18,579 nt of DNA. It comes from a virus. Lineage: Duplodnaviria > Heunggongvirae > Uroviricota > Caudoviricetes. The position numbers and the translations under genes were made by a program. The stretch is from the IMG/VR virus record IMGVR_UViG_3300039366_000108. One strand, written 5' to 3'. Below the pieces are notes generated by a model. That model saw only the letters and a list, made by a program, of their open reading frames with translations, ran no database searches and had not been told where the DNA came from. Shown one piece after another: positions 14,801-17,692 of this stretch. The stretch's first letter is position 1; each line of letters starts with the position of its first letter.

Positions 14801-15309
14801 TTTTCCTTTTGCTTATTACCATACAAAGCATGTGGAAAGAGAAGATTAACATGGAAAATATGGGGTTGGTGAGCAAATGGTACTGGTAGCCCGTCGACAT
14901 CTATCAGCATGATGATGTGAGGCCGTATCAGTGGCGGAAACCGAACAGGCTGCGACGGTGAGCGGGGCGTTATAGTAAGCCAACAGCCAAGCCAAACATT
15001 AAGCCTAAGGGTAGGGCTTTTTTGTGGCTGGTGGCGTAATGCCAACATTGTTACATGATGTTTTGAGGTATTATCTGCATGTTCGTGGTGAGGAACCACC
15101 AGAACTGATGAGCTTTTGTTTATGCATGTACTGCATGAAAACTGTCCTATAAAGTGGGGGGTAGGTGTGCTGAGGAGAACATTGTGAGCTACGCCAAATT
15201 AAATTGTGTCGGGGGTGAACAAGTTTCTTGATAGGTGTCAGTAGGCACCTATAGTTATAGGCTTCTTCAATTTTGTGTGCACAATATTTTGTATTGATTG
15301 GGGATAGGG

Positions 15310-15337
15310 TTGCACGCAAAATTAAAAAATGTATATT
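15310..15337 (+). promoter_or_regulatory. Candidate sigma70 promoter for the 532-aa cargo gene
   Basis: -35 TTGCAC (15310-15315), 16-nt spacer, -10 TATATT (15332-15337); AT-rich upstream tract. Confidence 0.4.
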
Positions 15338-15402
15338 TATTAACGTGTATTTGATAATTTTTAAATAAAATATTTCTCTATGTTTATCATAAAAGGTTTT
15401 TT

Positions 15403-17001
15403 ATGAGCGTGGCAATAAAAACAATGACACCAGTGTCATATTCTATAAAAGTTGATGCGATTAAGAAAAGATTGTCATATTTTAGTGATGTTTCTTTTTT
15501 GAGAAATTTTTATGAACACTTCCAAAAAGTAAGGGATGTCGAGGTGGGTATTGTTTCCAATTTCCCTTGGTGTTGCTATCTGGCAATGAAATGGAAGTTT
15601 TGCATGAAGGAAAAAAAGCCTGCAAAAGAAATGAGTAAAAATGATTTTGTTGATATTATCAACTTAATCTATAACTTGCAACTAGAAGCATCTAATTTAA
15701 TCGTTGATGATAAAGTTATGCTAAGCCTTAGACGAATGGTGATAAATCAGTTGCTTTATCAATCAACTGATAAATTTAATGCCAATTCATTAACAAGACA
15801 GTATATTTGGTATTGCTTGAATGATGAATCATATTATAAAGATAAGTTTTTAGAATGTACTGGTTTACATTTGGAAAACTATTACAAAATGGCATGTTAT
15901 TTTACCGCTATTTCATGTATTAATCCTGATATAGAATCAGAGGTTATTCCATTTAAACACTTGATAATAAACTTGGTTCCGATATTTGGTCCGGAACAAG
16001 TGAAAAGATTTTTGGAATTAACATGCTTAAAAATTGATGGTGTGAGAGATTTTATTGCCCCATATAAATTGGATAAAAACATTACCGCTGAGTATTATGA
16101 AGATACACCATTCCTCAGTAAACCAATGTTTTTAGATGGCGATGGTGTAGTGATATTATGCAAAAGAATCATGAAGTCAGGGTTTGTCAACCTAGTTCCA
16201 GAATTGTTCAAGCAGGTCTATAAGGAATCTTATAAAGAAAAATTTGGTAAGACGATGGGACTTTATATTTCTCGCTTTCTTGATAAGTACAATTATAACT
16301 TTAAGACTGAAAGGGAGGTTAAGAGGATTTATAGTGATAATGCAATAAAAAATTGCAAGTCCGTAGATTTTGTTATTTCAGAGGGAGATTCAATAGTTTA
16401 TATTGACTCGAAGGCAATAGAGCCTGCAAAGTTCGTTAAAACATCTAATAATGCTCAGTTGCTAAAGGAAAGGTTGAATAAGAGTTTTATTAAAGGGATT
16501 TATCAAGGTCAGGAATGTGCTTTTAACTTAAATAAAATAGAGATGAGAAAACCATCTTCGAAAGATTCAATGTTAATTGTGGTGCATCGGGATCATCATA
16601 TATCAAATGCAATGGTTGTGCAGGATTTTATTAACCCTGATTTATCAACTGAGTTATCTGAAAAATATCATAGTATCCCCATTGATCTAAAAAGAATTTA
16701 CTATATAACAATTGATGAGTTCGAATTATTACTTATGATGTGTAAACAGAAAGAACTATCTATTAATGAGTTTATTGATATGTGTGTGGAAAAAGATTCA
16801 TTCCCTCATACTCAGAAGTCTAATCTAAGCATGCACATATATGAATTTGCACCAGAGGGTATTGATGATGATCAATTGATTGTAAAAGGAAGAGACTTAC
16901 TGATTGATGATGTTATTGAAAATATGAAAGAGAGTGCATCAAAATGGTCTGGGAAAGTTGATATGTATCTTAAAATAAAAGATTATATTTTTAATTGGTA
17001 A
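15403..17001 (+). CDS. Large AT-rich protein (532 aa) of unknown function with a C-terminal PD-(D/E)xK-like nuclease motif; candidate defense/accessory gene
   Basis: SD AAGG 8 nt before ATG; own promoter and strong terminator; motif KSVDFVISEGDSIVYIDSKAIE (h-h-D ... D-x-K); no P-loop seen; very low GC relative to flanks. Confidence 0.75.
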   Translation: MSVAIKTMTPVSYSIKVDAIKKRLSYFSDVSFLRNFYEHFQKVRDVEVGIVSNFPWCCYLAMKWKFCMKEKKPAKEMSKNDFVDIINLIYNLQLEASNLIVDDKVMLSLRRMVINQLLYQSTDKFNANSLTRQYIWYCLNDESYYKDKFLECTGLHLENYYKMACYFTAISCINPDIESEVIPFKHLIINLVPIFGPEQVKRFLELTCLKIDGVRDFIAPYKLDKNITAEYYEDTPFLSKPMFLDGDGVVILCKRIMKSGFVNLVPELFKQVYKESYKEKFGKTMGLYISRFLDKYNYNFKTEREVKRIYSDNAIKNCKSVDFVISEGDSIVYIDSKAIEPAKFVKTSNNAQLLKERLNKSFIKGIYQGQECAFNLNKIEMRKPSSKDSMLIVVHRDHHISNAMVVQDFINPDLSTELSEKYHSIPIDLKRIYYITIDEFELLLMMCKQKELSINEFIDMCVEKDSFPHTQKSNLSMHIYEFAPEGIDDDQLIVKGRDLLIDDVIENMKESASKWSGKVDMYLKIKDYIFNW

Positions 17002-17005
17002 TTAA

Positions 17006-17033
17006 GCAAGGGTGTTATTATCAACACCCTTGC
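17006..17033 (+). terminator. Stem-loop terminator directly after the 532-aa gene
   Basis: Perfect 11-bp stem GCAAGGGTGTT / AACACCCTTGC with 6-nt loop, starting 5 nt after the stop codon. Confidence 0.55.
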
Positions 17034-17692
17034 TCATAGTCTTACAATATTAAATGTTGTGTTTTTTATTTATATATTTTATTGCCCATCAAGCTATTAA
17101 TTCATCTCGTTGTTTGAGATAGGTTGAGCATTTGTATTTTTTTATCAATTTTATCTGTATGAGCTTAAGCAGCTTCAATAATATCTGCGTTAAATTACGC
17201 TTCATTCAGAGACGTGCTTGCTATTGACATGTAATCCATGTGCAACAAGATTCCTGCCATAACTTATGCGTTTCAGATCCGAATCATGGACTGCTTTAAG
17301 TCATTTTTGTAGGGAAAACATGTTCACATGTCAGCACTGATTTGTTTCATCATATCCACTATCTCGAATTTCTGTGTCGATAGATGAATGCAGACGGAAA
17401 TATGTGAATTTTGTGCACGCTCTGCTATTAAGCGAAAACGAGCGTGGATATATCAACTAATAATTGCCCTCATTAACATAGGTGGTGGCGGGTATAATCT
17501 CTGTAACCCAGTTGTTCGTGACTACCCACCTCGTCAAATTTTCACACCCGCGAAATAAAAAATACTTCACGCTAGTGGTTATCCTTGGGCATCCACCAGC
17601 CCTTCATCATTGCCTGCCGGTGAGGCTGAGGCTCGAAGAAAAAGAGTGCTAGATAGTCGATTTTTGCCTGGTTTGGGATAAGGGAAAATTTA

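Follow-up and report, generated by a model that had tools for sequence, protein, structure and literature searches.

What is the single, markedly AT-rich gene that lies next to the right attachment site (attR) of an integrated element in the virus record IMGVR_UViG_3300039366_000108 (Caudoviricetes), and does it defend its host against phages? The window analysed here is the whole 18,579-nucleotide stretch of that record, and a first-pass annotation made from its letters alone had described the gene as a candidate uncharacterised anti-phage system with a nuclease-like motif and no recognised family. Our analysis showed that the gene is already known: it belongs to the curated and experimentally supported GapS1/GAPS1 family. 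It is very probably a gapS1 single-protein anti-phage system, carried on a 2.2-kb AT-rich cassette in the attR-proximal slot of the element, with a probable mechanism suggested by homology. The coding sequence is the following:

15403..17001, plus strand: gapS1 coding sequence, 532 aa plus stop, identified as an open reading frame (ORF), by NCBIfam NF047931 and by RefSeq naming

The remote-homology search that the first-pass annotation had proposed as a check returned the NCBIfam model NF047931 ('antiphage_GapS1') with 435.5 bits (E = 2.4e-130), residues 20-478 of the protein covering model positions 1-455 of 455; the curated cut-off of this model is 320 bits, and both the whole-protein score and the full-length coverage place the protein in the gapS1 family. 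PHROG 14259 also matches it over its full length, and when 1.84 billion cluster representatives were searched with a profile, 1219 relatives came up (426 of them at E <= 1e-30), mostly of 500-560 aa and matched full length. Pfam gave only sub-threshold noise for the 532-aa protein (TPD, DUF1405; best E = 0.029), PADLOC-DB 2023 gave zero matches, and sequence searches of the PDB, with the single protein or with a 35-sequence profile, gave chance matches only (Kalirin, neurocalcin). The family appears to be missing from Pfam and PADLOC-DB 2023, and their silence is no evidence of novelty. A megablast search found the gene in 6 of 5426 complete E. coli genomes, always on the chromosome and at an identity of at least 99.3%, and RefSeq names it gapS1 in four of these six carriers (WP_001526660.1, WP_054626965.1). 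Since so few genomes carry it, gapS1 is rare accessory DNA here rather than core genome; conservation as core genome outside islands, which the annotation had named as an outcome that would count against its proposal, was not seen. The words 'uncharacterised' and 'no family recognised' have to be given up in view of the NF047931 match, the RefSeq name and the published tests of a near-identical allele by Mahata et al.

The founder of the family, WP_005477165.1 of Vibrio parahaemolyticus, acts as a single protein whose C-terminal domain is a PD-(D/E)xK phosphodiesterase, and its defence against T7 is abolished by the D313A and K328A mutations (Mahata et al., bioRxiv 10.1101/2023.03.28.534373). 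T7 escapers of Vibrio GAPS1 are mutated in the major capsid protein Gp10, and co-expression of Gp10 with Vibrio GAPS1 stops growth and does not kill the cells, GAPS1 being non-toxic without the capsid protein (bioRxiv 10.1101/2023.03.28.534373). Three E. coli homologs, EGQ2075554.1, EJP5250929.1 and WP_152927281.1, each placed alone on a plasmid, protect against diverse coliphages; identity between the E. coli homologs and the Vibrio founder is reported as only 24-29%. Strain ZH142-A was sensitised by deletion of its native homolog, for which growth arrest was also seen (bioRxiv 10.1101/2023.03.28.534373). Because EGQ2075554.1 and the other validated accessions are not among the cluster-member accessions listed, the link between the window gene and a tested protein rests on the synthetic inserts in Table S3 of that study. 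Over its first 380 nt, the EGQ2075554.1 insert differs from window positions 15403-15782 by one base (nt 247, V83I), and the N-termini of the other two tested homologs, as their inserts have them, are clearly unlike that of the window protein. Judged from this insert, the window gene would essentially be the EGQ2075554.1-type GapS1 that has already been assayed.

The active site provides the second line of evidence, and lies in the C-terminal half of the protein:

16366..16413, plus strand: PD-(D/E)xK catalytic core, with D322 at 16366-16368, D335 at 16405-16407 and K337 at 16411-16413

The motif KSVDFVISEGDSIVYIDSKAIE, in which a PD-(D/E)xK nuclease core had been read from the start, is present in the window protein with D-x12-D-x-K spacing; its D322 and K337 are the counterparts of D313 and K328, the residues mutated in Vibrio GAPS1. 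Since the Vibrio founder was absent from the fetched representatives, which held only neighbours sharing its FIDAKGVEP motif, we used in the alignment a Vibrio active-site segment rebuilt from the published mutagenesis primers. This primer-derived segment, GKVVDFLHQRNGTSIFIDAKGVEP, aligns without gaps with CKSVDFVISEGDSIVYIDSKAIEP of the window protein (Vibrio GKVV-D313-FLHQRNGTSIFIDA-K328-GVEPNQKI with window CKSV-D322-FVISEGDSIVYIDS-K337-AIEPAKFV), and the D-to-K spacing is 15 in both. Across 35 aligned homologs, D322 and K337 never vary, and position 335 is D or E. A larger alignment of 177 sequences, drawn from the fetched relatives of the profile search, has Q116, P241, D322 and K337 invariant, D (131/177) or E (46/177) at position 335, E303 in 168 and Q368 in 173 of the relatives. 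Invariance, spacing and ungapped alignment all point to an active site equivalent to Vibrio D313/K328. No Walker A motif was matched in the 532-aa protein, again as first read.

The predicted structure is consistent with this assignment. The AlphaFold2 model, built from the 35-sequence alignment (mean predicted local distance difference test score 88.2, predicted template-modelling score 0.88), has a long helical N-terminal region followed by an alpha/beta core made up of helix 275-295, strand 300-302, helix 303-312, a beta-hairpin (323-327/330-337) that holds D322, D335 and K337, helix 362-379 and strand 389-394. Its best structural matches are the PD-(D/E)xK nucleases N.BspD6I, Upx and FokI, so that structure prediction, also among the checks proposed at first, found a nuclease fold, restriction-endonuclease-like and located in the C-terminal half of one chain of ~500-540 aa.

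The ORF itself is intact, with an ATG start and a TAA stop at 16999-17001, and the early observation that this is the lowest-GC gene of the window was borne out. Its GC content is 30.9%, as against 45.7% for the remaining island and 51-53% for the chromosomal flanks; the sliding profile reaches its minimum over 15251-17250 (windows of 0.296-0.324), the next-lowest windows being 0.338 (13751-14250) and 0.354 (9001-9500). Two flanking signals had been proposed in addition to a Shine-Dalgarno sequence:

15310..15337, plus strand: candidate promoter TTGCAC-16-TATATT of the first-pass annotation, matching 8 of 12 consensus positions and sub-threshold in the scan
17005..17034, plus strand: hairpin with a 12-bp perfect stem and a 6-nt loop, starting 4 nt after the gapS1 stop

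The claim of an own promoter was not supported, as the candidate falls below threshold and promoter-like sites in the AT-rich stretch occur at chance density (14 observed, 13.7 +/- 3.7 expected from shuffles); a stronger match, TTGATA-16-TATAGT (10/12), lies at 15228-15255. The Shine-Dalgarno sequence exists (AAAGG, 15392-15396, 6 nt upstream of the ATG) and is weak. What had been called a perfect 11-bp stem terminator is a real stem, of 12 bp, whose 81-nt context folds at -23.7 kcal/mol (z = -4.9 against shuffles), but it is non-canonical: there is no adjacent T-run, the nearest one lying around 17065-17075 past a second, weak hairpin, and it was not among the calls of the terminator scan. 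It is a possible transcript-end structure for gapS1.

Taken together with the published work, these data suggest how the protein could act. A phage structural protein would be sensed by the large N-terminal helical part, roughly residues 1-270; this phage protein is the major capsid protein Gp10 in the case of Vibrio GAPS1 and T7. Sensing would activate the PD-(D/E)xK phosphodiesterase of the C-terminal half (E303 and perhaps residue 286 if Glu, with D322, D335 and K337), the activated enzyme would cut a nucleic-acid target, and the infected cell would then halt its growth, entering dormancy without lysis, so that the phage cycle is not completed. Family membership, catalytic-residue conservation, the nuclease fold, the borders of the cassette and the swapping of its cargo come from the present analysis; the literature supplies the anti-phage activity of a near-identical allele, the need for the D and K residues (in Vibrio GAPS1), the triggering by capsid and the dormancy, and the trigger and outcome proposed for this subfamily and allele are drawn by analogy. 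As to the abortive-infection-like behaviour that had been suggested for the gene, what is reported for the family is a reversible dormancy, not classical suicide.

Several points weigh against a straightforward reading of the locus as a working defence gene. The comparison with the EGQ2075554.1 insert covers the first 380 nt of the gene. The capsid trigger is known for the Vibrio protein, whose identity to the E. coli homologs is only 24-29%, and would carry over to the E. coli subfamily by analogy; likewise, dormancy was shown for Vibrio GAPS1 and growth arrest for the ZH142-A homolog, and the same outcome would be expected here on the same grounds. With its candidate promoter at chance level, native expression of gapS1 is putative, and a gene of 31% GC may be silenced in E. 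coli. Finally, the protein of the window may be inactive or attenuated as a result of the E286G substitution, which we consider next:

16258..16260, plus strand: codon 286, GGA (Gly), the E286G allele; nearly all family members have Glu here

We regard it as a substantial possibility, though one falling somewhat short of probable, that E286G abolishes or weakens catalysis and that the locus is a decaying or attenuated copy, a GapS1 relic in this lineage. Such a reading is compatible with membership in the GapS1 family and competes with that of a functional gapS1 solely on whether this copy works. Position 286 is Glu in 170 of the 177 relatives, Gln in six, Ser in one and Gly in none, and all 34 close homologs (34/34) have Glu there; Gly286 is also the sole amino-acid difference from RefSeq WP_001526660.1. 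If Glu at 286 is taken as the mark of an intact allele, the window protein, with Gly, lacks it, and Glu286 is found in all five intact alleles of the complete E. coli genomes. The sixth copy, in strain 537-20, is frameshifted, which indicates that inactivation of gapS1 does occur in the species. The position of the residue argues in the same direction. It lies within the predicted helix 275-295, directly before the first core strand, and a catalytic or metal-binding Glu commonly sits before the first core strand in PD-(D/E)xK enzymes; by fold topology, residue 286 would occupy that place. The E286-D322 spacing of 36 residues compares with 38 residues between E418 and D456 of N.BspD6I, the mutated residues named in the PDB titles of that enzyme. 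Moreover, since EGQ2075554.1 has I83 in its Table S3 insert and every I83 allele examined carries E286, the tested protein probably has E286 and so probably differs from the window protein at this residue.

Against the idea of a relic, the rest of the ORF is intact, and the exact Gly286 protein recurs, with its island surroundings unchanged, on at least 24 contigs that come from several samples. Because of this recurrence, Gly286 is no sequencing error. Gln286 is tolerated in six relatives, and E303, conserved in ~95%, could serve as the catalytic Glu in its stead. A more specific version of the same idea would be that E286G is a naturally selected attenuated or inactive variant, retained in one E. 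coli lineage because it relieves a conflict between a growth-arresting, capsid-sensing nuclease on a satellite-like island and the capsid of the island's helper or of a resident prophage. We consider this unlikely; if true, it would be a case in the wild of a conflict between defence and satellite, resolved by a single change adjacent to the active site.

We now return to gapS1 as mobile cargo, where comparison of related islands at the same site, another of the checks initially proposed, was informative:

15036..17258, strand not assigned: AT-rich gapS1 cassette, a variable segment bounded by sequence common to related islands

Strain MFDS1006657 has an island (L003) at the same chromosomal site. 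Its identity to the window is 98% over 9473-13597 and 89-96% over the short blocks 14326-14452 and 14905-15035; homology ends at window position 15035 and restarts at 17259. We take 15036-17258 as the gapS1 cassette because of these breaks, which coincide with the AT-rich block (30.6% GC over 15300-17260). L003 carries a DUF4747 gene and a 199-aa gene in the slot instead of gapS1, a related island located elsewhere in strain WGI31CT (L004) has SieB there, and the slot of strain SCU-316 is filled by small unknown genes together with an integrase pseudogene. The attR-proximal end of the island is therefore variable, with swapping of its cargo, as had been supposed, and the description of a stand-alone, horizontally acquired single-gene anti-phage nuclease is upheld by the family match, the PD-(D/E)xK core and this variable slot. 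Outside E. coli, homologs in ten other species lie in unrelated contexts, including an Enterobacter plasmid, and have a GC content below that of their flanks in 8 of the 10; distant homologs also occur on plasmids.

Other observations were made on the variable segments and on the distribution of the family. The L003 pair (L003:7375-8867), consisting of a 297-aa DUF4747 protein and an overlapping 199-aa protein, neither of which has a PADLOC or NCBIfam match, is a candidate two-gene defence cassette. A second AT-rich variable segment of the window, 13598-14325 (34-36% GC), is absent from L003 and holds an ORF at 13692-14276 (194 aa) with no Pfam, PHROGs, PADLOC or NCBIfam match, which is another cargo gene; the segment 14453-14904 is likewise variable with respect to L003. 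The temperate Klebsiella phages OK490395.1 (142-1611) and MK416011.1 (35890-37386) encode distant full-length GapS1 homologs at the extreme ends of their genomes. These are ~20-22% identical, in line with the report of most GAPS1 homologs in K. pneumoniae, and their location suggests that they are prophage-borne GapS1 copies.

The element that carries the cassette is a satellite-like island (of the phage-inducible chromosomal island (PICI) type or the P4 type) of ~16.9 kb, which is integrated at tRNA-Thr in E. coli. Its borders and backbone genes are as follows:

832..907, plus strand: tRNA-Thr (CGU), the integration target, called by ARAGORN and Rfam
891-909, plus strand: left attachment site (attL) core TCCTATTATC(G)GCACCATT, at the 3' end of tRNA-Thr
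17776..17793, plus strand: attR core TCCTATTATC-GCACCATT, an 18/19 match to the tRNA 3' end
1074-2288, plus strand: tyrosine integrase, from Pfam and RefSeq of the identical island
3359-3556, plus strand: AlpA, from Pfam and RefSeq of the identical island
3635-4483, plus strand: AntA/B, from Pfam and RefSeq of the identical island
7300-9105, plus strand: D5_N/DUF5906/Pox_D5 primase-helicase, from Pfam and RefSeq of the identical island

The tRNA-Thr locus of E. coli lies between proA and the pao operon, and a LysR fragment and the chromosomal paoD side follow beyond attR; the tRNA was the only match of Rfam over the whole window. The gene does lie close to attR, its end being about 775 bp from that site, and Pfam found all three of the integrase, AlpA and primase genes by which the element had first been recognised. 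The gene order of the identical island of strain APEC E123 in RefSeq agrees with our Pfam scan of the window: tRNA-Thr is followed by the tyrosine integrase of P4 type, an unknown gene of 243 aa, AlpA, AntA/B, the Icd-like gene, several small ORFs, DUF4222, the D5_N/DUF5906 primase-helicase, ProQ/FinO, PerC, an unknown gene of 380 aa, further small ORFs and finally gapS1. SatelliteFinder counts integrase, AlpA/MerR/Stl regulator and primase-replicase among the core criteria of a PICI (de Sousa et al. 2023, PMC10085698), and the island has three of the five (integrase, AlpA, primase). No capsid-morphogenesis gene was matched among its ORFs, the one match to a small terminase (TerS), PHROG 57, is weak, and psu, delta and sid genes were not found in the island, which sets it apart from PICI- and P4-like satellites that have them. 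An element with three core genes would be of 'Type C', which the authors of the scheme themselves call ambiguous with P4-like elements (de Sousa et al. 2023, PMC10085698).

The island is not a GMT island. These begin with the GmtY tyrosine recombinase, the Phage_Integr_2 integrase GmtZ and the StbA-like GmtX, and are often flanked by inverted repeats, whereas the island here has no such recombinase trio, its single recombinase being a P4-type integrase (Arm-DNA-bind_3, Phage_int_M, Phage_integrase), and is bounded instead by direct repeats of the tRNA-Thr 3' end. The 243-aa ORF between integrase and AlpA has no family match.

Some further features of the island deserve mention. Positions 766-833 are a run of 68 N, which hides the sequence before tRNA-Thr together with its first bases; the tRNA is nevertheless called from 832. 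Just inside the island ends, ~110 nt from attL and ~60 nt from attR, an exact 23-nt direct repeat, ATTGGGGGTACTTTTGGGGGTAT, occurs at 1020-1042 and 17692-17714, and its copies are possibly arm-type binding sites for the integrase or an excision factor. Searches of 17001-17800 by tblastn and six-frame translation found no integrase remnant or hidden ORF. Iterons of the form GGTAGAC-N-GTTGGTAGACAG, in both orientations, are dense at 9133-9471, in the AT-rich gap between the stop of the primase gene (9105) and ProQ/FinO (9477), and probably constitute the replication origin of the island. The 181-aa ORF at 12765-13310 has a weak N-terminal match to the PHROG 57 TerS family (E = 2.2e-6, residues 5-48) and also matches excisionase/HTH_17 (helix-turn-helix) models at its N-terminus; it could be a packaging-redirection or excision factor of the island, and three CGCGAAAAAGTGTCAA-like repeat copies follow it at 13311-13515. 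A 512-codon stop-free frame at 4476-6014 (plus strand), in a region of strongly negative AT skew, would be unusually long if non-coding. It has homologs (Icd-like/PHROG repressor) for its last ~70 residues only and runs antisense to the RefSeq minus-strand genes at 4898-5098 and 5156-5461 (YlcI/YnfO). We rejected it as a large gene on account of these ~70 C-terminal residues and of the two opposite-strand genes beneath it.

Given this setting, one could imagine that the cassette mainly serves the satellite, by blocking competing or non-helper phages or a late stage of the helper, with the island as the beneficiary. The variable end in which the gene lies does belong to an integrase/AlpA/primase island, one that has iterons and encodes a TerS-like HTH protein, and defence systems have been reported on satellites (de Sousa et al. 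2023, PMC10085698). However, GapS1 homologs are also found in GMT islands, plasmids, temperate Klebsiella phages and non-island loci, and protect when expressed alone from a plasmid, which makes a dedicated service to the satellite improbable.

It is still more improbable that the protein is a constitutive orphan endonuclease resembling the Type IIS enzymes, which would cut phage DNA directly, with neither a phage-protein trigger nor growth arrest. Its predicted fold does recall the cleavage domains of N.BspD6I (2ewf), the R.BspD6I small subunit (2p14) and FokI (2fok), but at 10-13% sequence identity, and unlike Type IIS enzymes GapS1 has neither homology to a recognition domain nor a partner methyltransferase, the latter being absent from the cassette. 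Vibrio GAPS1, moreover, shows no toxicity unless the T7 capsid protein is expressed with it, and the mutations of escapers fall in the capsid gene rather than in DNA sites, in keeping with triggered dormancy as opposed to sequence-specific restriction.

Among solved structures, the closest relative of the GapS1 model is Upx, a single-protein anti-phage nuclease with dual PD-(D/E)xK domains that is activated by a phage protein (PDB 9wuf; Zhou et al. 2026, PMC13099982), at a TM-score (template-modelling score) of 0.33, which is low. Upx differs from the 532-aa GapS1 in its length of 1212-1272 aa, in having two nuclease modules and a middle domain, and in its partners, gp16 and terminase rather than capsid, and no sequence similarity between the two was detectable. 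It is a lead that the resemblance may reach past the nuclease core, and Upx may be built from two GapS1-like modules.

That the gene represents a genuinely new, uncharacterised anti-phage system, as the first-pass annotation had it, is hardly tenable: the silence of Pfam (best E = 0.029) and PADLOC-DB 2023 and the want of a PDB sequence relative are set against a curated NCBIfam model, a RefSeq gene name and published experiments on a near-identical allele.

The appropriate label for the gene is thus gapS1; it is no novel system but a defence gene backed by published experiments. In common with other members of the GapS1 family, it encodes a single protein of ~530 aa with a PD-(D/E)xK core of D-x12-D-x-K geometry in its C-terminal half and is carried as mobile-element cargo; it differs in lying in an integrase/AlpA/primase island at tRNA-Thr rather than in a GMT island, and in the E286G substitution of its allele. 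It adds one documented setting for GapS1, as exchangeable cargo between sharp borders in a satellite-like tRNA-Thr island of E. coli that is not a GMT island, and draws attention to a circulating gapS1 allele in which a near-invariant glutamate is replaced. If the Gly286 allele proves inactive, E286 would offer an inexpensive hint at one more residue of catalytic or regulatory importance in the family.

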